Origin: Deltaproteobacteria bacterium
GTDB taxonomy: Bacteria > Myxococcota > JACRCW01
DNA length: 32,039 bases
Reading direction: 5' to 3'
Assembly: GCA_016218805.1 (NCBI GenBank)
Contig: JACRCW010000065.1
Coordinates: 62,001-94,039 of the forward strand
Shown here: piece after piece, positions 2,272-19,375 of the stretch
How the letters are laid out: each line of letters starts with the position of its first letter
Position numbering within the stretch: position 1 is the first letter of the stretch
Position numbers and translations under genes: made by a program
Notes under the pieces: generated by a model
Seen by the model: only the letters and a program-made list of their open reading frames with translations
Told to the model about the DNA's origin: nothing
Databases searched by the model: none

Positions 2272-2538
2272 CGACCTCCCACAGGAGCTGAATGCGTCTT
2301 GCTCGCCTTTTTGTTGCGCAAGGGACCCCGCTGCGCGGTTGCTCGGGGCGCCGGGCTTGCCGCAGGCAAGCCATCCACGCCGCCCCACTCTTGCTTCTTT
2401 TTGCGGGAGCGGCCCTCGATGACGGAGCGCAGCGACGTGGGCGGGGGGGACCGTGAGAGGGATCGCCCCCGGTGATTGACGCGGTCCTGGGGAACGCGCG
2501 GGCCCGCCCCGGGATGGTTCCGCGGTGCAAAACTCGCG

Positions 2539-2564
2539 CGGACCCCCCCGTTCGGGGGGTTACG
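2539..2564. promoter_or_regulatory. Near-identical palindrome, putative operator (copy 2)
   Basis: CGGACCCCCCCGTTCGGGGGGTTACG, 23/26 identical to copy 1, ~70 bp upstream of the terpene synthase ATG. Confidence 0.55.
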
Positions 2565-2636
2565 GACGGTTCACCGCGCCCTCTAGTTTGCGCAGGCACG
2601 GACCCGCACGCCGCGGATCCCCCTGGAGGTCACGCC

Positions 2637-3776
2637 ATGCGCGCCCCCCATCACGGTCAGCAGTTCCGCATTGCCTCGGCCCGCGAGGCGGCGGGCTTGC
2701 CCACCCATGATTCGCTGCGCCTCCAGGCCTGGCCCAGCCACTGGTGCTGCCCGGTGCGCCGCAACCCGCACGCCGCGGCCGTGGAGGCGGCCGTGCTGTC
2801 GTGGTTGTTTGACCTGGGGTGTTCGCCGGCGGAGGTGGCGCGCGCGCGGAAGTTTGACGCCGCCGGGTACGTGGGGCTGCCCTTTCCGCTGCTCTCCCAC
2901 CCCCAGGCCCTGCGCGTGGGCAAATACCTGGCGCTGTGGCTGCTGTGGGATGACGTCCACTTGGAGCGCCCGGAGAACCGCTGGCGGCTGACCAGCGAGC
3001 ACATCCTCTCCAACCTCCGGCCGCCGCAGATGACCCGGTTTGATGAGGGCTGGTGGCAGCTGTTCCAGGAGTTCGCCGCGGTGCGCAGCCCCCGCTGGCT
3101 GGACGGGCTGTGCAACACCATGACCGCCTGGTGCGCAGCCGCCATGGATGAAGCACTGATGGTGCGCCGCTTCCGTGAGCAGGGCGAAGTGCCGTCGTTT
3201 GACCGGCAGCTGCAGGTGCGCATCGCCACCATCGGGATGTTTGGCACCGTGTACCTGCTGGAGGACGGCTACGGTTACGAACTGCCCGTTGACTTCCACG
3301 CGCATCCCACCGTGCAGCGCATGACGGTGCTGGCCAACCAGATTGTCGGGTTGGGCAATGACCTGTTCAGCTGCGCCAAGGACGTTGCCACCGGCCAGCT
3401 CAACCTGGTCACCACGGTGATGCAGGAACGCGGCCTGACCCCGGCCGCCGCGCTGGAGACCATCATCCAGCTGCATGATGAATCACTGCAGGAATATGAC
3501 CAGCTGGCCGAGACGCTGGGCACCTGGTCTCCCGAAGCCGACCCGTACATCGCGCGGTGGGTGCAGGACGTCCGCTACGCGTCCCTGGGCTTCACGCTGT
3601 GGGAGGCGCAGGCACCCCGCTACGCCGCGCACCGCCTGGTGGTGGACGGCGCGGTGGTGGCGCCGTCCTTCCTGTTTGTCCCGGCCCTGGCCAGCGCCGC
3701 CCCCGGGCCCGTGGACGCCCTTCCCCATCCCTGTCCCCCGCCTCCCCAGGCCAGCCGCTCCGGAGCCTCTCCATGA
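2637..3776 (+). CDS. Class I terpene synthase/cyclase
   Basis: Asp-rich motif WDDVHLE, PPi-sensor Arg (VRIATIG), NSE-type motif NDLFSCAKD, C-terminal WEAQAPRY (WxxxxxRY). GGAGG RBS before ATG 2637. Confidence 0.9.
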   Translation: MRAPHHGQQFRIASAREAAGLPTHDSLRLQAWPSHWCCPVRRNPHAAAVEAAVLSWLFDLGCSPAEVARARKFDAAGYVGLPFPLLSHPQALRVGKYLALWLLWDDVHLERPENRWRLTSEHILSNLRPPQMTRFDEGWWQLFQEFAAVRSPRWLDGLCNTMTAWCAAAMDEALMVRRFREQGEVPSFDRQLQVRIATIGMFGTVYLLEDGYGYELPVDFHAHPTVQRMTVLANQIVGLGNDLFSCAKDVATGQLNLVTTVMQERGLTPAAALETIIQLHDESLQEYDQLAETLGTWSPEADPYIARWVQDVRYASLGFTLWEAQAPRYAAHRLVVDGAVVAPSFLFVPALASAAPGPVDALPHPCPPPPQASRSGASP

Positions 3777-4189
3777 CCCTCACCCTCAGCCAACACGGCA
3801 GCTTCCTGGATGTCATTGTCACCCAAACCCTCACGCCGGATGACGTGGCGGACCTGCTGCGGGCCATTGACGCGCAGCGCCTCAGGGGGCCGTTTGTGAT
3901 CCTCACGGACACCAGCGGCATGAAGGCCGCGCCGCGCCCGGTGGTCATGTTGTTTGTGGAGGGCATGAAGACCCGCCCGCCGCTCAGGGACATCTGGCTG
4001 GCCAATGCGGTCGTGGTGAATTCGCCCGCGGCGCGTTTTGTGTTGTCCACGCTGTTGATGATTGCGCCCATGCCCACGCAGGTGAAGGCCTTTGACAAGC
4101 GTGCGGATGCTGAAACCTGGCTGACGGACGTGTTGCGCCAGGCTCAGCTGAAATCCGCCCGAAACCCCGCTCAACAGGAGAATCCATGA
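3773..4189 (+). CDS. STAS/SpoIIAA-like (STAS/SEC14-type) small protein
   Basis: ATGA overlap with the terpene synthase; FVILTDTSGM...AVVVNSPAARFVLS...VKAFDKRADAETWL pattern. Confidence 0.7.
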   Translation: MTLTLSQHGSFLDVIVTQTLTPDDVADLLRAIDAQRLRGPFVILTDTSGMKAAPRPVVMLFVEGMKTRPPLRDIWLANAVVVNSPAARFVLSTLLMIAPMPTQVKAFDKRADAETWLTDVLRQAQLKSARNPAQQENP

Positions 4190-6645: not shown

Positions 6646-8645
<2,000 letters not shown>

Positions 8646-8861
8646 CGACGTGGTCTTGTGCCCTCCCGCGCGTCCCGTGGCAACCCGCAGCCGCTGCGGC
8701 CTCGCGCACCGGGTGCGCCCAGCCTGCGCGATCCGAAGGAACATCGGGTCCCGCCCGGGCCCATGGCACCCCGGCCGCCCCCGGGCACCCGGGACGCAAG
8801 CCGGTGAACGCCAAGGGGTAAACCCCGACGTCACATGCCGCAGTGCGGCAAGAAGGCGGAC

Positions 8862-8877
8862 TGACACGGTTCTTGCT
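8862..8877 (+). promoter_or_regulatory. sigma54-like -24/-12 element upstream of cytochrome gene 1
   Basis: TGACACG-GTTC-TTGCT versus consensus TGGCACG-N4-TTGCW (one mismatch, in the -24 GG); identical copy at 13254. Confidence 0.55.
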
Positions 8878-8938: not shown

Positions 8939-10093
8939 GTGACCCGCTTGCCGCATTGTTCTCTTCGCCACGCCCGGTTTGCCGTACTGCTGGGCGGGCT
9001 CATGATGGCTGCGGCCGGCAGCCTGGCCGCGGGCGAGAAAGCCAAGGGCAAGCCACCCCCGGCGCCTCCGCCCAAGAGTGCGCCGCCGGCCAAGGCCCCG
9101 CCAGCCGCCAAGGGCGCGCCGGTCAAGCCGCTCCCGCCACTCAAGCAGGGCGCCCACGCGCCGCTCAAGGAGAAGGTCGCCTACGTCCACGGCCCGTTTG
9201 AAGAAGGGGATTGCAGCATCTGCCACAAGAACAAGGACCCCAAGAACCCCGGCCCGGCGCTGGACCCCACCCCGGAACTCTGCCTGGGCTGCCACGAGGA
9301 ATACCGCGAATACTCCACGCAGCGCGTGGTGAAGCACCGTCCCACCCAGGAGGGGTGCACCTGGTGCCACAACCCGCACAACTCCAAGCAGCCGCACCTG
9401 CTGCTGGAGGAGAGCAGCGCGCTGTGCCTGCGCTGCCATGACGCGGTCCGGCAGGTGCTGCAGAACGGGAAGGTGAAGCACGGCGCCGTGGAAGAGGGTG
9501 AGAAGTGCATGACCTGCCATGAGCCGCACGGCAGCAACATTGAGAGCCTGCTGGTGAAGCTGCCCTTTGACCTGTGCGTGGAGTGCCACGCCAAGGACAC
9601 GCAGCTGGATGACCAGGGCAAGGCGCTGACCAACATGAAGAAGCTGCTGGATGACAACCCGGAGTGGCACGCACCGGTGGCGGCCAAGGACTGCAGCGTC
9701 TGCCACAACCCGCACGCCAGCCCCAACTTCCGCCTGCTGACCAGCGAATACCCCGCCCGGTTCTATGAGCCGTATTCCGTCAAGACCTACGCGCTGTGCT
9801 TTGAGTGCCACAACGAGCAGATGGCGGCCACCGAGGAGACCACCGCGCTCACCGAGTTCCGCGACGGCAAGCGCAACCTGCACCACCTGCACGTGAACAA
9901 GGCGGAGCGCGGCCGCACCTGCCGCGCCTGCCACGAGGTGCACGCCTCCAAGTGGCCCTTCCACATCCGCGAGGGCGTGCCGTTTGGGAACAAGGGATGG
10001 ATCCTGAAGATCCAGTACGAGAAGACGGCAACCGGCGGGTCCTGCGCCAAGAGCTGCCACCCCAAGCGCGTCTACAACCGGACCATCAAATGA
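8939..10093 (+). CDS. Periplasmic multiheme (10-heme) cytochrome c
   Basis: Nine CxxCH (CSICH, CLGCH, CTWCH, CLRCH, CMTCH, CVECH, CSVCH, CFECH, CRACH) plus CAKSCH; CHxPH repeats; signal peptide and Pro/Lys/Ala linker. GTG start after GAGAGG inferred. Confidence 0.92.
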   Translation: MTRLPHCSLRHARFAVLLGGLMMAAAGSLAAGEKAKGKPPPAPPPKSAPPAKAPPAAKGAPVKPLPPLKQGAHAPLKEKVAYVHGPFEEGDCSICHKNKDPKNPGPALDPTPELCLGCHEEYREYSTQRVVKHRPTQEGCTWCHNPHNSKQPHLLLEESSALCLRCHDAVRQVLQNGKVKHGAVEEGEKCMTCHEPHGSNIESLLVKLPFDLCVECHAKDTQLDDQGKALTNMKKLLDDNPEWHAPVAAKDCSVCHNPHASPNFRLLTSEYPARFYEPYSVKTYALCFECHNEQMAATEETTALTEFRDGKRNLHHLHVNKAERGRTCRACHEVHASKWPFHIREGVPFGNKGWILKIQYEKTATGGSCAKSCHPKRVYNRTIK

Positions 10094-10941
10094 GTGGCGC
10101 CCTGCAGACCTTCCGCCGGCCGGTGGAAGCCGCCGCGCTGGTGCTGGCCGCCGGCGCGCTGTGGTGCGGCGCCGCTGACGGCGAGCCGCTGCCCCCGGGA
10201 ACCCAGCTGGAACAGCTCACGCTGCCCACGCTGGACGGCGGCAAGGCCGAGCTGATGGGTAGAAACGCCAAGGTCAACGTGGTGCTGTTCTTCCGCCCGG
10301 GCCAGGAGTTCTCCGCGCTGGTCCTCAAGGACCTGGCCGCGTGCGAGCAGGAGATGGCGGGCAAGCCGGTGCACTTTGCCGCGGTGGTGACGGACCAGTA
10401 CCCCGGCGCCGACGTGCAGGCCGCGGTTACCGCCGCCGGCGTGAAAATGCCCGTGTTTGTGGACGGGGGCGCCGCGCTCAGTGGCCGCTACAAGGTCATC
10501 CAGAACCCCGCCATGGCGGTGATTGACGGGAAGCTGAAACTGGTGGTCTTTGTGCCGTACACCAAGAACCACGCGCAGGTGATCCGCGCCCGCATCCGCC
10601 ACGCACTGGGCGAGCTCACCGACGCCGAGCTGGACACCATCCTCCACCCGCCCAGCCAGCAGGCCGGCGGCCTGGAGGGCGCCGCCGCGCATCGCCACCT
10701 CAAGCTCGCGGAGCGGCTGCTGGCGGCGGGCAACGCGGAGAAGGCGGCGGATTCGGCCCGCAAGGCGCTGGACAAGGACCCCAACCTGGCCGACGCGCAT
10801 GCGCTGTTGGGCGCCGCGTTGGCGCTGGGCGGGGACTGCGCCGGGGCGCGCAAGGCGTTTGACGCCGCGCTGGCGCTGGACAAACAGAATGCCCGTGCCC
10901 TCCAGGGCCGGAAGGAATGCGAGGGCGGAGCCAAGAGGTGA
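10090..10941 (+). CDS. Exported thioredoxin-fold (redoxin-like, no CxxC) protein with C-terminal TPR
   Basis: ATGA overlap with cytochrome 1; signal peptide; LPTLDGG...VVLFFRPGQEFS...MPVFVD...NPAMAVID redoxin pattern; TPR helices DPNLADAHALLG. Confidence 0.8.
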   Translation: MSGALQTFRRPVEAAALVLAAGALWCGAADGEPLPPGTQLEQLTLPTLDGGKAELMGRNAKVNVVLFFRPGQEFSALVLKDLAACEQEMAGKPVHFAAVVTDQYPGADVQAAVTAAGVKMPVFVDGGAALSGRYKVIQNPAMAVIDGKLKLVVFVPYTKNHAQVIRARIRHALGELTDAELDTILHPPSQQAGGLEGAAAHRHLKLAERLLAAGNAEKAADSARKALDKDPNLADAHALLGAALALGGDCAGARKAFDAALALDKQNARALQGRKECEGGAKR

Positions 10942-10944
10942 CCC

Positions 10945-13185
10945 ATGGGCGCAACAACGGACCCCACGCTGGCAGCGGTTGACGCGGTTCAACCCGCGGA
11001 CGGCGGCGTGTATGGTCCGCGCCCGCCGGAGGGGCCTGGGGCCGCCATGTTTGAGCCCATGAAGACTGGCATGTCGCTCCCGCCCGCCGGCGTGCCGTTC
11101 GGGAAATACCGGTTGGACTACCGGCTGGGGCAGGGCGGCATGGGCGAGGTGTTCAAGGGTCACCTCGTGGGGCTGGGCGGGTTTGACAAGACGGTGGTGA
11201 TCAAACGCATCCTGCGCTCGCACCTGGCGGACCCTGAGTTCGTCAACATGTTTCTCGACGAGGCGCGCCTGGTCGCGCTGCTGTCGCATCCCAACATTGC
11301 GCAGGTGTTTGAGATTGATGCGTTCCAGGGGCTGCCCTACCTGGCCATGGAGTACGTGGCCGGGCCCACGTTCTTTGGAATGATCCGCGAAGCCCACCGC
11401 CGTCACGACGTGCGCATGGGCTGCATTGCCAAGATCATGTCCAAGGTCTGTGACGGCTTGCACCACGCCCACAACGCGCGGGATGGGAGCGGGCAGCCGC
11501 TGGGGATTGTCCACCGTGACGTGAGCCCGCCCAACATCCTGGTGTCCGTGGAGGGCGTGCCCAAACTGGTGGACTTTGGCGTGGCCATGGCGCGCGGGCG
11601 CATGTCCAGCAGTTCGCCGGGGCTGGTGAAGGGCAAGCTGCGCTACGTGGCCCCTGAACAGATCCGCGGCGAGCCGCTCTGCGGGCGCGCGGACGTGTTC
11701 TCCGCCGGCGTGTGCCTTTACGAAGCCACCACCGGGCGGCGCCCCTTTGACGGCAAGAGCGAGGCGGAGATCATGCACGCCGTGCTGGAGGGGCGCTTTG
11801 TGAAGCCCTCCAAGCTGGTCTCTGAGTACCCGCCGGAGCTGGAGGCCGTTGTCAATTGGGCGCTCAAGACGGACCCCGCGCAGCGCTGCCCGTCCGCCAA
11901 GGCCATGCAGGAGGCGCTGGAGTCGTTTGTCACCGAGGGCGAATACCGCGCCAGGACGCAGGACGTGGCGGAGTGGATTGCGCAGCTGTTCCCGGACACG
12001 GGCCAGCAGCCGGAACTGCGCTACGTGGCCCCGCGCACGCAGGAGCCCTCGCCCTCGCCGCGGGCCGCCACACCCTCACCCGCCCCCGGCGCGCCGGCTC
12101 CCGTCTCCCTGCCCCCGCCGCTGCCCGCGGACTCGGTCACCGCCGAGCCCACCGCCCCCATGGCCGCACCGCCCACCGCCGCGGTGTGGGACGCCGAACC
12201 CGGTCCCCCTGCGCCCGCCCGGGATGCCCCCTCGCCGCCCGAGGTCAGCGTGCCCGGCTTTGCAGTGGAAGACGACATGGTGCAGGCGGTGGAGGCCGCA
12301 CCCGCGCCGGAGGCGCCCGCGCTCCCGCCGGTGGACGAAGACGCCCGGCGCAGCGCCTGGCGGGTCATGCTGGGCGTGGGCAGCGCGGCGGTCGTCGTGG
12401 GTGGCCTGTGGGTGGCCGGCGCCAGCGTGGTCATCTGGGCGGCGTATCAGCAGCACGGCAGCTCGCCGGTTGCGGCGGTGGAGGAACTCGCCCGGAACGA
12501 GCACCGCACGCCCGCACCCGCCCGCGAACCTCCGGCCCCCGTCGCCCCGGCCCCCGTTGCCCTGGCAGCCGTTGCCCCTGCCCCCGTCGCCCCGGCCGCG
12601 CCCGTGGCAAACGCAGCACCTGAGCCACCGCCCGCCGCCGAACCGCCCGCACCTGCCGCCGACGAGGCGCTGCCCCCCGCTGCGGCAGAAGCCGCGCCGC
12701 CCGTCGAGGTCCCTGCGCCCGCGCCCGCTGCGCGCGCTGAGCCGCGCAAGGCTGAGCCGCGCCGGAGCCCGGAGCCGGCCGCCAGGCCCCGCAAGAAGGG
12801 CCGCCCGGAGGCTGCCGCCGCCTCTGACCCGTCACCCACGCCGCCGGCGCCTGCGCCGCAGCCCGCTGCAGCGGCTGCCCCGGAGGAGCGCGATGTTGCC
12901 GCCACGCCGAGCGAGGGCGTGGTGCAGGACCCCAACATGGCGCGCAACACGCTGCACCTGGCCCAGATGCTGTTCAACAACGGCGCGCTGCCCAAGGCGC
13001 TGCGCACCGCCCGGCGCGCCGCTGGGCAGGATCCGTCGTTTGCTGCGGCGCACGCGCTGGTGGGCGCCATCCTGGCCGCGCAGGGCGAATGCCCCGCCGC
13101 GCGCCAGGCATTCCAGACGGCGCTGGCCCTGGACCGCGCGGACAAGGTGGCCCGGGAGGGCCTGGCGTCCTGCGTTGACCGCTGA
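10945..13185 (+). CDS. Hanks-type Ser/Thr protein kinase, single TM, Pro/Ala-rich linkers, C-terminal TPR
   Basis: LGQGGMGEV, VVIKRI, HRDVSPPNIL, DFG, APE; TM VMLGVGSAAVVVGGLWVAGASVVIWAAY; start may lie slightly downstream. Confidence 0.95.
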   Translation: MGATTDPTLAAVDAVQPADGGVYGPRPPEGPGAAMFEPMKTGMSLPPAGVPFGKYRLDYRLGQGGMGEVFKGHLVGLGGFDKTVVIKRILRSHLADPEFVNMFLDEARLVALLSHPNIAQVFEIDAFQGLPYLAMEYVAGPTFFGMIREAHRRHDVRMGCIAKIMSKVCDGLHHAHNARDGSGQPLGIVHRDVSPPNILVSVEGVPKLVDFGVAMARGRMSSSSPGLVKGKLRYVAPEQIRGEPLCGRADVFSAGVCLYEATTGRRPFDGKSEAEIMHAVLEGRFVKPSKLVSEYPPELEAVVNWALKTDPAQRCPSAKAMQEALESFVTEGEYRARTQDVAEWIAQLFPDTGQQPELRYVAPRTQEPSPSPRAATPSPAPGAPAPVSLPPPLPADSVTAEPTAPMAAPPTAAVWDAEPGPPAPARDAPSPPEVSVPGFAVEDDMVQAVEAAPAPEAPALPPVDEDARRSAWRVMLGVGSAAVVVGGLWVAGASVVIWAAYQQHGSSPVAAVEELARNEHRTPAPAREPPAPVAPAPVALAAVAPAPVAPAAPVANAAPEPPPAAEPPAPAADEALPPAAAEAAPPVEVPAPAPAARAEPRKAEPRRSPEPAARPRKKGRPEAAAASDPSPTPPAPAPQPAAAAAPEERDVAATPSEGVVQDPNMARNTLHLAQMLFNNGALPKALRTARRAAGQDPSFAAAHALVGAILAAQGECPAARQAFQTALALDRADKVAREGLASCVDR

Positions 13186-13253
13186 TTGTTCGCCATGGCG
13201 CACGGTTTTCGCGTGCCCCGTGCGGCCCTCCGCGCCATGGCGCGGCGTGGGCG

Positions 13254-13269
13254 TGACACGGTTCTTGCT
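13254..13269 (+). promoter_or_regulatory. sigma54-like -24/-12 element upstream of cytochrome gene 2
   Basis: TGACACGGTTCTTGCT, identical to 8862-8877. Confidence 0.55.
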
Positions 13270-13335
13270 TTTCCCGCCCGGCTTTCCGGCGTAGACCCCC
13301 GCTCTGCCGCCTGCATGGCATGGCACGAGGAACCC

Positions 13336-14541
13336 GTGACCACGACACGACACGGTCTTTGCGTCCGTCCCACCCTGGCCCTTCTGGCCGCGGTGCTGCT
13401 GTTCACACTTCCCGTCGCCGCCGCCGCGCCCAAGGGAGGGGGCGGGAAGAAGGGTGCGCCGCCGCCCGCCGCCGCCGCCAAGAAGCCAGAGGCGCCCAAG
13501 CCCGCCGCGCCGCCGCCCGCGCCCGCCAAGCAGGCCGAGCCACCCGCCAAGGCCCCGGCACCGGCCGCCGCGCCCCCGGCCAAGAAGCTCCCCGCGCTGG
13601 CCAAGGGCGCGGTGGCCCCGGTCAAGGACGGCGCCACCACCATCCACCCGCCGTTTGAAGAGGGGGATTGCAGCGCCTGCCACACCGGCACGGATGCCCA
13701 GGACCCGGGCCCGCTCAAGGGTGACATGAAGGAGCTGTGCTTTGAGTGCCACGAGGGCCACAAGGAGTTCCTGGAGAAGCCGTCCCAGCACGTGCCCTTC
13801 AATGAGGGCTGCACCTATTGCCACAACCCGCACAACTCGGTGGCCCCGGCGCTGCTGCGGGACACCATGGACACGCTGTGCCTGTCCTGCCACGACACGG
13901 TGAAGAACGCGCTGGCCACCGCGGTGAAGCACGGCCCCGCCGTCGAGGGAAAGAAGTGCCTCAATTGCCACGCGCCACACGGCGGGGATTTCAAGCCGTT
14001 GCTGGATAAAGAGCAGTTTGACCTGTGCCTGGGCTGCCATGACAAGGACGACGTCAAGGACCGCCGCGGCATGGTGCTGACCAACATCAAGCAGCGCCTG
14101 GATGCCAACGCGGAGTGGCACGCGCCCGTCGGCGCCAAGGAATGCGTCACCTGCCACAGCCCGCACGGCAGCCCCTCCTTCCGGATGCTGGCCAACACCT
14201 TCCCTGCCCGCTTCCATGAAGGCTACGCCAAGGAGAAGTACGGCCTGTGCTTTGACTGCCACAATGACCAGCTGGCGGCGAACCCGACGACGGATTCGGA
14301 CACCGAGTTCCGCGATGGCACGCGCAACCTGCACTACGTGCACGTGAACAAGAAGGAGCTGGGCCGGACCTGCCGCGCCTGCCATGACTTCCACGCGGTC
14401 AAGGGGCCCAGCATGATCACCGACGGCGTGAAGTTCGGCCGCAAGGGCTGGGTGCTGAAGGTGCAATTTGAAAAGAACGACGACGGCGGCAGCTGCGCCA
14501 AGAGCTGTCATTCGGCCAAGAGCTACCGCCGCGGGAAGTGA
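13336..14541 (+). CDS. Periplasmic multiheme (10-heme) cytochrome c, paralog of 8939-10093
   Basis: Nine CxxCH (CSACH, CFECH, CTYCH, CLSCH, CLNCH, CLGCH, CVTCH, CFDCH, CRACH) plus CAKSCH; shared EFRDGxRNLH and [11 protein letters not shown] start after GAGG inferred. Confidence 0.92.
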
Positions 14542-14593: not shown

Positions 14594-16147
14594 ATGGCCG
14601 CCCCCCTTGAATCCCAGCCCGTCCTCATCCTGGACTTCGGTTCCCAGACGAGCCAGCTCATTGCGCGGCGCGTCCGCGAGCTGCGCATCTACTCCGAGCT
14701 GGTCCCGCACACGGTCACGGCGGCGGAGGTCCGCAAGCGCCACCCGGCGGCCATCATCCTGTCCGGTGGGCCGGCCAGCGTGTACCAGGAGGGCGCGCCC
14801 ACGGCGGACCCGGACATCCTGGAACTGGGCATTCCCGTGCTGGGCATCTGCTACGGCTGCCAATGGATGGCGCGCGCGCTGGGTGGGACGGTGGAGCGCG
14901 CCGCCCACCGTGAGTTTGGCCGCGCCGAGATTGAAATACGCGAGTCCGTGGAGATCTTTGCCACGCTGGGGCCGGGCAAGCACCCGGTGTGGATGAGCCA
15001 CGGCGACCAGGTGGAGAAGCTGCCGCGCGGCTTCACCGTGCTGGCGCACACGCCCACCTGCCCGCACGCCGCCCTGGGCTGGCGCGCGCGCAAGCTGTAC
15101 GGCGTGCAGTTCCACCCGGAGGTGGTGCACACGCCCATTGGCCGGGACGTGCTGGAGAGCTTCCTGGTGCGCGTGGCCGGCGTGCCGCAGCAGTGGCGCA
15201 TGGCGGACATTGTGGGGCAGAGCGTGGCCCGCATCCGTGAACAGGTGGGCGAGGGCCGCGTGGTGTGCGCGCTGAGCGGCGGCGTGGATTCCGCGGTGAC
15301 CGCGGCGCTGGTGCACCGGGCCATTGGGGACCGGCTCACGTGCGTGTTTGTGGACAACGGCGTGCTGCGCCACGGCGAAGTGGAGCGGGTGCGGCAGGTG
15401 TTTGTGGACGCCTTCCGCATGGACCTGCGCGTGGTGGACGCGCGGGACCGCTTCCTGGACAAGCTCAAGGGCGTCACGGACCCCGAGGAGAAGCGCAAGC
15501 GCATCGGCGCGGAGTTCATTGCCGTGTTTGACGCGGAGTCCGAGCGCCTGAGCGGCGTCACCCACCTGGCGCAGGGCACGCTGTACCCGGACGTCATTGA
15601 AAGCGTGTCCAACAAGGGGCCGTCGGCGGTCATCAAGACGCACCACAACGTGGGCGGGCTGCCCAAGAAAATGAAACTCAAGCTGGTGGAACCGTTGCGG
15701 GAGCTGTTCAAGGACGAAGTGCGCGCGCTGGGCGAGGAACTGGGCCTGCCGCGCTCGCTCATCCGGCGGCAGCCCTTTCCCGGCCCGGGCCTGGCCATCC
15801 GCGTGCTGGGCGAGGTGACCGCGCCGCGCCTGGCGCTGGTGCGCGCCGCCGACGTGGTGGTGCAGGAGGAGATTGAGGCCGCCGGCCTGGCGGAAGGCAT
15901 GTGGCAGGCCTTTGCCGTGCTGCTGCCGGTGCGCAGCGTGGGGGTCATGGGGGATGGCCGGACCTATGAGGAGACCGTGGCCATCCGCGCGGTCACCAGC
16001 GAAGACGGCATGACCGCGGACTGGGCGTGGCTCCCGCGGGACGTGCTGGACCGCATCTCCAGCCGCATCATCAACCAGGTGCGCGGGGTCAATCGCGTGG
16101 TGATGGACATCACAAGCAAGCCGCCGGGCACCATTGAGTGGGAGTGA
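14594..16147 (+). CDS. guaA: GMP synthase (glutamine-hydrolysing)
   Basis: [47 protein letters not shown]-terminal KPPGTIEWE. Confidence 0.98.
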
Positions 16148-16299
16148 ACCTACAGGGTGCTCCGAAACGGATCAGGAGTGTGACGGGCGTACTTGCATGG
16201 GAAAGCCGGAAAGGTGAATGTGCGCCCCGGCCGGGCGTCCAAACGCGTGTGAGCCCCCGCCGGGAGGCGGCGAAGCAGGGGCGGCACCACCGGTGAAAG

Positions 16300-16315
16300 G
16301 CGTCACATGTGACGC
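16300..16315. promoter_or_regulatory. Perfect 16-bp palindrome, putative TF site
   Basis: GCGTCACATGTGACGC in the 310-bp intergenic region upstream of the envelope cluster. Confidence 0.4.
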
Positions 16316-16457
16316 GCGGCACCAAGAAGTTCTTCAAGCGGTTCCGGTGGAGATTTTTTTGACGGGAGTGGTTGGCGGAGTCCCGCGGGTTTTTTTCTGG
16401 AGACCAGACAGAGGCGGGTTGGCCAGGGTCAGGCTGCCGCCGCGTGGAGAGGAAGCA

Positions 16458-17285
16458 ATGCGGAGCGTCAGTGGCATCTTGAGGTGGGCGGCGGCTGCAG
16501 GAGCGCTGGTGGTGGCCATGGCGGCGGCCCACGCGGCGGAGGCGGGCAGTGGCGCGGTGCAGAAGATTGGGCACGGCGAAATCAACTGGACCGACCAGTA
16601 CGTGGTGGCAACCGGGAGCGGCGCACCGCCTCCGGGCGCCGTGAATGTGGCCCAGGCGCGCCTGGCCGCGGAACGCGCGGCCAAGATGGATGCCTTCCGC
16701 AACATCCTGGAGGTGCTCAAGGGCGCCCAGGTGACGGCGAAGAGCACCGGCGCCGACGAAATGAGCAATGGCACCATCAAGAGCAAGGTGGAAGGTGTCA
16801 TCAAGAACTTCAAGGTCGTGGACACCAAGTACTATTCGGACGGCAGCGTGGATGTCATTGTCCGCGTGGAGCTCAAGGGCGACCTGTCTGACGCCCTGGT
16901 GCCGGACGCGGCCAAGCCCGTGGCGGTGCCCGCGGCGGGTGCGGCCAAGAACAGCGGCCTGATTGTCAACGCCAAGGGCCTGCAGGCAGTCCCGGCCATG
17001 GCGCCACGCATTGTGGATGAGGCCGGCAACGAAATCTACGGCGTCAACGTGGTCACGGAAGCGGCGGCCAAGGAGAGCGGCATTGCCGGCTACGTGAAGG
17101 ACCTGGACAGCGCGCAGGGGCACAGCCGGGTGAAGGGCACCCCGGTGGTGGTCCGCGCCATCCGCCTGGCCACGCCCGGCAAGAGCGACCTGGTCATCAG
17201 CAACGCTGACGCGGAGAAGCTGAAGGACCCGAACTCCAACCAGTCCTACCTTGCGCAGGGCAAGGTCATCATCGTGATTGACTGA
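16458..17285 (+). CDS. Exported LPP20-like domain protein
   Basis: Signal peptide ending AHA; INWT...VATGSG...ARLAAERAAKMDAFRNILEVLKG pattern; GAGG RBS. Confidence 0.65.
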   Translation: MRSVSGILRWAAAAGALVVAMAAAHAAEAGSGAVQKIGHGEINWTDQYVVATGSGAPPPGAVNVAQARLAAERAAKMDAFRNILEVLKGAQVTAKSTGADEMSNGTIKSKVEGVIKNFKVVDTKYYSDGSVDVIVRVELKGDLSDALVPDAAKPVAVPAAGAAKNSGLIVNAKGLQAVPAMAPRIVDEAGNEIYGVNVVTEAAAKESGIAGYVKDLDSAQGHSRVKGTPVVVRAIRLATPGKSDLVISNADAEKLKDPNSNQSYLAQGKVIIVID

Positions 17286-17320
17286 CCGTGGTGGCACCAC
17301 GCAAGTCAGGGAGGCTTGTC

Positions 17321-18481
17321 ATGCGCAACAAGGCATTCATCAGTGCAACGGCGTTGGCGCTCTGCGTGGCCACCACGGCCCGCGCCGAGGACGAGAAAAC
17401 GGTCACCGTCACGGGGCAGGCGGCCATCGTCAACGGGGACCAGAAGGGCGCCACGGAGAAGGCCCGCCGGGATGCGTTCCGGCTGGCGGTGGAGCAGGTG
17501 GGCGGCGTGCAGCTGGCCAGCTCCACGGTGGTCAAGAACTTCATGATGACCTCGGACGTCGTGCGGTCACAGGCGGACGGGTTTGTGAAGGCCCACGAGG
17601 ACAAGGAAGTGAAGTGTGATGCCAGCGTCTGCTCGGTGACCGCGGCGGTGACCGTGGCCAAGAGCGGCGTGGACAGCTTCTACAACCTGATGCTCATGCA
17701 GGCGGGTCACCCCAAGGTGGCGTTTGTCATCGCGGAGCGGATGGCGGGTCAGACGGACTTTTCGCTGGCCAACCAGGAGCGCGGCAAGAGCGAGAACATG
17801 CTGACGGACTATTTCATTGAGCGCGGCATGAAGGTGGTGGACTTTGGGGGCATGACGGGCGTCAACCTGTCCGGCGCCGCGGCCTCCGGTGAACTGAGCG
17901 CGGCCGACGCCGACAAGCTGGCCGACAAGGCGGACGCGCAGTACGTGGTGCTGGGCAAGGTGGTGGGCGTGGACGCCGGGCCGATCATGATCCAGGGCCT
18001 GCGCTCCTACAACATGACCTTCACGCTCAAGATGTTCTCCACCGCCACCCATGAGATTGTGGCGACGGTGACCAAGAGCAACGCCATCCCGTGCATCAGC
18101 CCCAACCTGGCGCCCGTGTCGTGCATGAGCCTGTACCGGGCGCGCGTGGTGGAGCCGGCCGCGCAGGAACTGCTCAACAAGACGGCCAAGTCATTCCAGC
18201 AGCAGGTGACCGGCGAGCGGCGTGTGCAGGTGCGGGCCAAGGTGGCCAGCTTTGCGGCGCTCAACGGGTTTGTGAAGGCGCTGCAGGGCGGGGCCATTGG
18301 CGGCATCAAGGACGTGCAGCAGCGCACGTTCAAGGACGGCAAGGCCACGCTGGATCTGCAGTTGGAAGGCGGGGACGTGAACTACCTGGCCGGTGAGCTG
18401 TCCTCCAAGAAGGTCGGCGGTTCCACGGTTGAGGTGACGGGCGTCAACAACGACCTCATCGAGATCGAAATCAAGAAGTGA
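17321..18481 (+). CDS. Exported protein with FlgT N-terminal-like domain
   Basis: Signal peptide ending ARA; VTVTGQAAI...ARRDAFRLAVEQVGGVQLASSTVVKNF pattern; GGAGG RBS. Confidence 0.65.
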   Translation: MRNKAFISATALALCVATTARAEDEKTVTVTGQAAIVNGDQKGATEKARRDAFRLAVEQVGGVQLASSTVVKNFMMTSDVVRSQADGFVKAHEDKEVKCDASVCSVTAAVTVAKSGVDSFYNLMLMQAGHPKVAFVIAERMAGQTDFSLANQERGKSENMLTDYFIERGMKVVDFGGMTGVNLSGAAASGELSAADADKLADKADAQYVVLGKVVGVDAGPIMIQGLRSYNMTFTLKMFSTATHEIVATVTKSNAIPCISPNLAPVSCMSLYRARVVEPAAQELLNKTAKSFQQQVTGERRVQVRAKVASFAALNGFVKALQGGAIGGIKDVQQRTFKDGKATLDLQLEGGDVNYLAGELSSKKVGGSTVEVTGVNNDLIEIEIKK

Positions 18482-18496
18482 GCGTTTCTGCCTCCT

Positions 18497-18524
18497 GGGA
18501 GTCCCGCTCCAACGCGGGACTCCC
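18497..18524. other. Intergenic GC hairpin (mRNA stability or weak terminator)
   Basis: GGGAGTCCCGC-TCCAAC-GCGGGACTCCC, 11-bp stem with no U tract. Confidence 0.5.
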
Positions 18525-18562
18525 GGGGTGCAGGTCTCCAATCCGTACAGCGAGGTTGTGCC

Positions 18563-19375
18563 ATGAAGACGGCGGGATGGGTTGGCAGGGGGGTGGCCGC
18601 GGCCACCGTGGGGCTGGCGGCGTGGCTGCTGCCGGTGACGGACAGCCAGGCGGCCAAGCCCGCAGCGGCGGCGCAGGGCGGCGTGGCCGGCAAGGTCACC
18701 TTCCTCAAGGGCAGCGCGCAGCGCGGCGCCAAGGAGAACGGGCCGTTCAAGCCGCTCAAGCGCAATGACGACCTGCGCGAGGGCGAGTACGTCAAGACGG
18801 CGGCGGACACGCGGCTGGAAGTGAAACTGGCGGACGGTTCCCTGGTGCGGCTGGCGCCCAACAGCGCGCTGCGCATGGGCACCGCCAAGGCGGCCGAGAC
18901 CGGGGACAATGAGAAGGCGCAGGCCAAGCTCACCGCGGGCAAGCTGTGGGCGTCCGTCACCAAGGGGGTGGGGTCGCAGAACAAGTTCGCCGTGCGCACG
19001 GAGAATGCCGTGGCCGGCGTGCGCGGCACCACGTTCCGGGTGAACGCCGAGACGGACGGTTCCACCGTGGTCAAGGTCTACGAAGGCGCCGTGGCCGTCT
19101 CCAACGGGCCCATGGTGGAGAAGCAGAAGGCGGGCGGCGGCAAGGGCCCCATAGACTTCAAGGGGCGCAAGGAAGTGGCCGCCCCGTTCAAGGAGGTCAC
19201 CCTGCAGGAGTGGGAGAAGATTGTTGGCAAGATGATGGGCATCAAGGTGGCCGCCAACGGTGAACAGGCGGAACCGGCGGCGTTCACCGCGGAGAACGAC
19301 GCGGCCGACAAGGAAGACGCCGACTGGGTGGCGTGGAACCAGGAGCAGGACAAGACCGCTGACACGCCGCAGTGA
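18563..19375 (+). CDS. FecR-domain exported protein
   Basis: LREGEYVKT...LEVKLADGSLVRLAPNS...LTAGKLW...VRTENAVAGVRGTTFRV...VKVYEGAVAV. Confidence 0.88.
   Translation: MKTAGWVGRGVAAATVGLAAWLLPVTDSQAAKPAAAAQGGVAGKVTFLKGSAQRGAKENGPFKPLKRNDDLREGEYVKTAADTRLEVKLADGSLVRLAPNSALRMGTAKAAETGDNEKAQAKLTAGKLWASVTKGVGSQNKFAVRTENAVAGVRGTTFRVNAETDGSTVVKVYEGAVAVSNGPMVEKQKAGGGKGPIDFKGRKEVAAPFKEVTLQEWEKIVGKMMGIKVAANGEQAEPAAFTAENDAADKEDADWVAWNQEQDKTADTPQ

Follow-up and report, generated by a model that had tools for sequence, protein, structure and literature searches.

Why should a Ser/Thr kinase gene lie between two genes for decaheme cytochromes? The question is raised by a four-gene block within a 32,039-nucleotide stretch of a Myxococcota genome (contig JACRCW010000065.1, positions 62,001 to 94,039; called the window below), which a first-pass annotation had described as a candidate redox-signalling module. 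The block consists of the following open reading frames (ORFs), one of them for R, a protein that joins a redoxin domain to a tetratricopeptide repeat (TPR) region.

8939..10093, + strand: cyt1, decaheme cytochrome, predicted to be exported
10090..10941, + strand: R, redoxin-TPR protein
10945..13185, + strand: Hanks-type Ser/Thr kinase
13336..14541, + strand: cyt2, duplicate of cyt1 that arose locally

The annotated layout held up. The four + strand ORFs are co-oriented, cyt1 and R overlap by ATGA at 10090-10093, the kinase begins 3 nt after the R stop (TGA-CCC-ATG), and the two paralogous cytochromes flanking R and the kinase have ten haem motifs each and share 55% identity. Genes for a porin, a cytochrome b or cytochrome maturation are absent from the block, as was also claimed; its immediate flanks are a DUF4149 gene and guaA, and the genome has two CcsA-family genes on other contigs.

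A decaheme cytochrome family with a near-constant partner

We analysed the best 80 of 378 genomic matches to the cytochrome. In 76 of these loci R follows the cytochrome within 350 bp, in one it lies at 615 bp downstream, and in three it is missing; there was one R copy in 44 loci, two in 24 and three in nine. The pair occurs in Myxococcota, Verrucomicrobiota, Acidobacteriota and beta/delta groups, including a named, cultured Anaeromyxobacter (L057), and P0230 at locus L099 is a natural cytochrome-R fusion. Our hand count of 401 genomes of the phylum gave 48 with cytochrome and R, seven with the cytochrome only, two with R only and 344 with neither; in this tally, 14 genomes whose cytochrome matches were weak and of half length were scored as lacking it, and six R candidates were scored per genome. 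The R-positive genomes are not independent, since 45 of 50 come from one family, and the unpublished genome G195 enters tallies only. Genomic contexts of the pair vary among the 80 loci: it lies in the dcw cluster in 28, in NHL protein clusters in 13 and with an 11-haem cytochrome in 14, or stands alone. One genome (G438) has cytochrome and R with the kinase absent. Judged from these neighbourhoods, the conserved core is the cytochrome-R pair, not the kinase.

Some individual loci deserve description. At the 28 dcw loci (L030, L037, L041, L046, L057 and others) the cytochrome lies on the opposite strand between ddl and ftsQ, together with as many as three R copies. A verrucomicrobial locus (L099:4745-8528) has a tandem pair of cytochrome-R fusion genes beside NHL and putative beta-barrel genes. 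R also exists alone, as on two contigs of one genome (G127 C15 and C11; L160, L161) where R copies have no cytochrome nearby. We rejected G378, with two cytochrome copies 4.5 kb apart, as an instance of the window's layout; it has no R and no kinase.

The cytochrome family comprises 2683 proteins at E <= 1e-40 (4924 candidates). Both cyt1 and cyt2 have nine CXXCH motifs and a C-terminal CX3CH (CAKSCH), making ten haems, and cyt1 carries a Pro/Ala/Lys linker. Ten additional His residues are conserved family-wide and present in both, so that the haems are probably all bis-His ligated and the protein a wire rather than an enzyme. Residues 5-189 of the cyt1 model superpose on MtrA (6r2q_A; Z 10.1, root-mean-square deviation 3.7, 162 aligned), while the C-terminal part of the model is of low confidence. 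The likeness to MtrA/DmsE/MtoA (TIGR03508; 6R2Q chain A) thus extends to ten haems, paired-CXXCH repeats and N-terminal superposition. The differences are that both proteins score below the curated TIGR03508 cut-off (97.6 and 93 bits against 192.2), that they have nine CXXCH and one CX3CH where that family calls for ten canonical CXXCH, that this last site lies in a distinct C-terminal domain, that no MtrB-type porin gene adjoins them (the neighbours being DUF4149 and guaA), and that their partner is R. Scores to the GSU2203 decaheme family (NF041028) were likewise below the cut-off (72.2 and 94.1 against 325). Small three-haem genes resembling the cytochrome N-terminus adjoin the 5' side of the cytochrome in many other loci, and a 114-amino-acid three-haem protein of this kind is encoded at G000:C158:13032-13376, on a different contig from the block.

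R as a putative partner protein without redox chemistry

R has a signal-peptide-like N-terminus, a ResA/TlpA-fold domain and a C-terminal TPR; its model has a pLDDT of 95, and the top Foldseek match is ResA. CxxC is found in none of 90 R proteins, the corresponding site being QxxS, while D125 and Pro140 are invariant, with Pro140 in 90 of 90 at the expected cis-Pro position (a position in sequence, not a geometry). The window's R (10090-10941) has Phe and Asn at the pseudo-active site, where His (QEHS, LHP) is found in about half of the family. The earlier label of a Cys-less redoxin is right for the active-site CxxC but not for the protein, which has C26, C85, C250 and C277. A C-x26-C pair occurs in 80 of 101 TPR sequences and probably forms a structural disulfide. 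Because CxxC is lacking throughout the family, R is a catalytically dead ResA-like binding protein, not an oxidoreductase. It resembles ResA/TlpA in fold, in the Pro at the cis-Pro position and in export; it differs in lacking CxxC, in being fused to a TPR and in being encoded with one specific cytochrome. We are fairly confident that R binds the cytochrome, for which it most likely acts as an adaptor or chaperone. This near-constant partner of the decaheme family, a dead ResA with a TPR, is apparently undescribed so far. Atlas searches returned only automatic TPR or redoxin names, a metagenome scan with R alone gave six matches, all generic TPR, and among the matches listed (60 of 286) there was no solved structure with the redoxin-TPR combination.

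A narrower role for R would be that of a dedicated maturation factor for the CX3CH haem site, a pseudo-ResA with an NrfG/CcmI-like TPR, in which case the kinase would be a quality-control sensor of apo-cytochrome. Besides the ResA fold match, this is favored by the presence of one CX3CH in each of 82 of 82 cytochrome ORFs scored, and by the NrfG and CcmI TPR apocytochrome chaperones, which according to the accessible part of PMC12285233 bind the C-terminus of their cytochrome. As described there, those proteins, like R, are TPR proteins that serve a multiheme cytochrome whose haem motifs include a non-canonical one. The differences are that the block has no haem-lyase gene, that R has a pseudo-redoxin domain, and that R is missing from some genomes that keep the cytochrome. 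Searches for the TPR_CcmH_CycH type gave generic TPR matches, P0230 reaching a weak 21.8 bits, below the cut-off of 42. We consider a maturation role unlikely, given that CxxC occurs in 0 of 90 R proteins, that there are as many as three R per cytochrome, and that cytochromes without R retain CX3CH, including that of a single-contig genome (G059) with no R match.

The kinase carries an R-type TPR

The kinase ORF divides as follows.

about 11110-11913, + strand: kinase domain (Pkinase, E 2.6e-37)
about 12385-12441, + strand: transmembrane helix (hydrophobic amino acids 481-499)
12925..13182, + strand: C-terminal TPR, by homology to the R TPR, with C716 and C743 kept

The catalytic motifs are intact (Gly-loop, VVIK, HRDVSPPN, DFG, APE, DVFSAG). 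There is one transmembrane helix, with a hydropathy peak of 2.04 at amino acids 481-499 and Arg residues ahead of it, which would place the C-terminus outside, and the linker is 57% Pro and Ala. Known proteins to set beside it include PknE and PknG, and also the haem-c sensor domains found in histidine kinases and in chemoreceptors. The protein shares with transmembrane Hanks kinases of the PknB/Stk1 type the intact catalytic motifs and the order kinase, transmembrane helix, linker and sensor; it differs in having no PASTA domain (232 against a cut-off of 450) and in an outer domain that is a copy of part of the neighboring cytochrome's partner. Apart from this outer domain, which is unusual, it is an ordinary transmembrane Hanks kinase.

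The kinase TPR is 46% identical to the R TPR (E 3e-15). A profile of the R-family TPR, built without the window's row, gave 98.0 bits for R and 84.7 for the kinase TPR; of the genome's 135 domain hits, the other 133 reached 42.5 at most. At the level of sequence, this comparison shows the outer TPR to be homologous to that of R and acquired from an R copy; its place in the block is where second R copies sit in 33 of 80 loci. Since this TPR derives from the family that partners the cytochrome, it ties the kinase to the module more strongly than adjacency does. Adjacency alone is cheap: of the genome's 74 kinase ORFs, three lie near a multiheme ORF.

Is the TPR under selection? Of the 119 homologues nearest to the window kinase, P0280 alone has an R-type TPR fusion (69.8 bits). 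The window kinase and P0280 share 67% identity in the kinase domain, 44% (ungapped, with both Cys) in the TPR and 22-31% in the linkers, and the excess of TPR over linker identity suggests that the TPR has been maintained by selection. An objection is that a rearrangement may simply have fused a kinase to a spare R gene's 3' end, the TPR now being no more than a generic fold or a cap for dimerisation that conveys no cytochrome signal. The richness of the genome in kinases (74 ORFs) and the varied C-termini of close kinase relatives both speak for such an accident. The conservation of the TPR above the linkers in P0280 speaks against it, as do the retention of the kinase in a block that is present or absent as a unit and the second, independent recruitment of a kinase directly behind R at L091 and L101. 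On balance we regard an accidental fusion as unlikely.

Kinases at other cytochrome loci

The first-pass annotation had proposed a neighborhood search for co-occurrence of the three families, which turned out not to occur together as a rule: a kinase occurs in only seven of the 80 cytochrome loci, none with this TPR, and the 14 next-closest kinase loci of the phylum search have no R-type TPR and no cytochrome within 1.5 kb. The seven loci hold eight kinase domains, seven of them no more than 2.6 kb from the pair, which fall into four unrelated adjacent groups and one distant kinase; these kinases are 28-40% identical to the window kinase. At L091 and L101, an unrelated transmembrane kinase begins 2 nt past the R stop. 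In the L091/L101 family, R and that kinase paralogue share the same two of 34 genomes, and the two may be close kin. At two verrucomicrobial loci (L047:7330-9603 and L050:4752-7007) the kinase is divergent from the cytochrome and has an N-terminal membrane-flanked sensor region and a C-terminal kinase domain.

Divergence of the second cytochrome

The two cytochromes and P0012 form a clade with support 99 (FastTree), in which the end branch of cyt2 is 0.85 and that of cyt1 0.16, an about five-fold faster divergence of cyt2. All haem motifs and ligand His are kept in cyt2. Scored at 80 conserved non-ligand positions, cyt2 has lost 28 and cyt1 12; three of the cytochromes without R have lost 21-24 and a fourth 7, and 13 divergent R-linked ones 5-14. 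At the nine positions lost in the R-less cytochromes and kept in the divergent R-linked ones, six are lost in cyt2 and one in cyt1 (p 0.043, a post hoc test on few lineages). Many R-linked sequences, too, overlap significantly with cyt2 in their losses, and so part of the pattern is general tolerance. From these alignments cyt1 looks like R's partner and the conservative copy, with cyt2 released or repurposed. The six of nine candidate R-dependent residues lost in cyt2, as in R-less cytochromes, also speak for an accidental kinase fusion, under which cyt2 would be a spare wire, under relaxed constraint and driven by a promoter of its own.

The asymmetry of the cytochromes also bears on the redox part of the original proposal. 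A redox sensor would have the kinase TPR bind a decaheme, perhaps a specialized cyt2, and kinase activity track the haem oxidation state and pass it on as Ser/Thr phosphorylation. The one-to-one layout of two cytochromes and two R-type TPRs would suit this, as would the about five-fold faster divergence of cyt2 with haem ligands intact, as after a change of role. We nonetheless think a redox sensor decidedly improbable: the outer part of the kinase has no redox-active feature except the Cys pair found family-wide (80 of 101 TPRs), the pattern of losses in cyt2 fits freedom from R better than it fits a new conserved surface, and the layout recurs in no other locus among the 80.

Upstream elements and transcription

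An exact repeat precedes both cytochromes.

8862..8877, + strand: 16-nt element TGACACGGTTCTTGCT, 61 nt 5' of cyt1
13254..13269, + strand: the same 16-nt element repeated exactly, 66 nt 5' of cyt2

These are the only two copies in the genome at one mismatch or fewer. Sixteen is also the longest stretch common to the two upstream regions, against a mean of 8.5 and a maximum of 12 in shuffles. The element resembles a sigma-54 -24/-12 promoter with one change in the GG, and the genome encodes an RpoN-box ORF and 14 GAFTGA proteins. Ahead of other family members, the element was found in one of 79 at four mismatches or fewer and a near-consensus sigma-54 site in one of 69; scans for sigma-70 promoters and terminators gave no signal above chance. 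The arrangement suggests that cyt1-R-kinase and cyt2 are co-regulated and initiated separately, with cyt2 probably having its own promoter. A single transcript of all four genes appears doubtful, given the 150-bp gap between kinase and cyt2 and the exact 16-nt copy in front of the latter. That cyt2 has its own upstream element is a further point for an accidental fusion.

The block and its surroundings

The genes around the block are outside the module.

6673..8148, + strand: guaB (inosine monophosphate dehydrogenase)
8133..8646, - strand: DUF4149 gene, divergent from cyt1, its start placed by a 168-amino-acid homologue in G001
14594..16147, + strand: guaA (GMP synthase)

In G001, which belongs to the same family, the order guaB, DUF4149, guaA is uninterrupted: the three genes match window positions 6684-8601 and 14616-16147 with nothing between them. 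Searches of G001-G003 detected neither the cytochrome nor R. The nearest relative has none of the four genes at the guaB-DUF4149-guaA site, and in this they act as a single block. Misassembly was considered and rejected, as a single Logan contig (from one groundwater run, possibly the source sample) covers 9917-13905 with zero differences. The GC content at third codon positions of cyt1, R and the kinase is 0.86-0.91, like that of the flanking genes.

Elsewhere in the window, a terpene synthase family 2 gene (2472-3776) is followed by a SpoIIAA-like gene (3557-4189), and LPP20, FlgT-like and FecR genes lie beyond guaA (16218-19375) and are also kept in G001. The genome has 38 ORFs with at least three CXXCH, and the names attached to homologues of the kinase and of R also make Myxococcota its probable phylum. 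Other multiheme clusters are found at G000:C54:26530-31679 (33- and 9-haem proteins and a putative barrel), G000 C165:2690-21074 (14- and 19-haem proteins and maturation genes) and G000 C146:62403-68581 (12-, 3- and 7-haem proteins and an apparent two-component system).

A proposed function for the kinase

By sequence and synteny, the core of the module is an MtrA-like decaheme, a probable periplasmic wire, with its dedicated partner R; cyt1, cyt2 and R are all predicted to be exported. The cytochrome-R unit was duplicated in this lineage, as the cytochrome tree shows for the cytochrome, and in an order of events that we can only suggest, a myxobacterial transmembrane Hanks kinase would have gained the TPR of an R copy, and cyt2 diverged. 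The kinase TPR would then dock on the target of R's own TPR, whether the cyt1-R assembly or R itself, or possibly cyt2; docking would cluster the kinase, and autophosphorylation would signal the presence or proper assembly of the periplasmic electron-transfer component. Haem redox state need not be read by the kinase.

The first-pass annotation suggested that the kinase may read the presence or redox state of a cytochrome. The R-type TPR and the shared block do tie the kinase to the module, but none of our tests favors redox state over presence or assembly. Our preferred reading, tentatively held and given somewhat less than an even chance, is that docking on the cytochrome/R assembly lets the kinase signal the presence or the state of assembly of this complex; the probability left beyond this reading, a redox sensor and an accidental fusion goes to other roles.

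Several results weigh against the docking we prefer. The enrichment of kinases beside the module has a p of about 0.054 after relatives are collapsed, and in this genome three of 74 kinase ORFs lie within 2 kb of a multiheme ORF. The R-type TPR-kinase fusion occurs in two proteins only, P0280 being the one of 119 that shares it, and a stricter initial screen of 400 other genomes gave no full-length kinase match, the kinase domain alone being matched (three candidates scored per genome). A quick tree of the TPRs does not show the donor R copy. Finally, the residues particular to first-position R copies number five and all fall within the redoxin domain, giving a weak hint that this domain, absent from the kinase, is what grips the cytochrome.

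Relation to known systems and meaning

In 13-14 of the 80 loci the pair has NHL proteins and an 11-haem cytochrome around it, in the manner of the described Uet/Occ clusters (10.1101/2022.05.06.490989; 10.1101/695007; PMC9900912). The undecaheme, NHL and beta-barrel genes are absent from the window block and present in some homologous loci. The accessible text of these Uet/Occ descriptions mentions neither such a decaheme-R pair nor a kinase fusion. No description of the pair or of its link to a kinase was found in literature listings or in the accessible running text of PMC9900912, PMC13194489, 10.1101/695007, 10.1101/2022.05.06.490989 and PMC12285233; the 19-gene occ cluster or osc operon may hold the pair under locus tags.

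The firm part of our findings is a multi-phylum decaheme family with a near-constant partner, R; as the pair also occurs in a cultured Anaeromyxobacter and in Uet/Occ-like clusters, it can be tested now. More speculatively, the kinase illustrates how a receptor domain can be borrowed from an adjacent respiratory gene. If the kinase does bind the module, a multiheme electron-transfer assembly or its redox state would be coupled to Ser/Thr phosphorylation, a link for which we found no precedent in the literature. It is improbable, though worth stating, that the kinase made R's docking domain into a receptor and the duplicated, specialized decaheme into its ligand, so that the state of the wire sets phosphorylation directly; if this were true, the repeated appearance of unrelated kinases behind the pair would mark it as a general signalling input, beyond its role as a wire.

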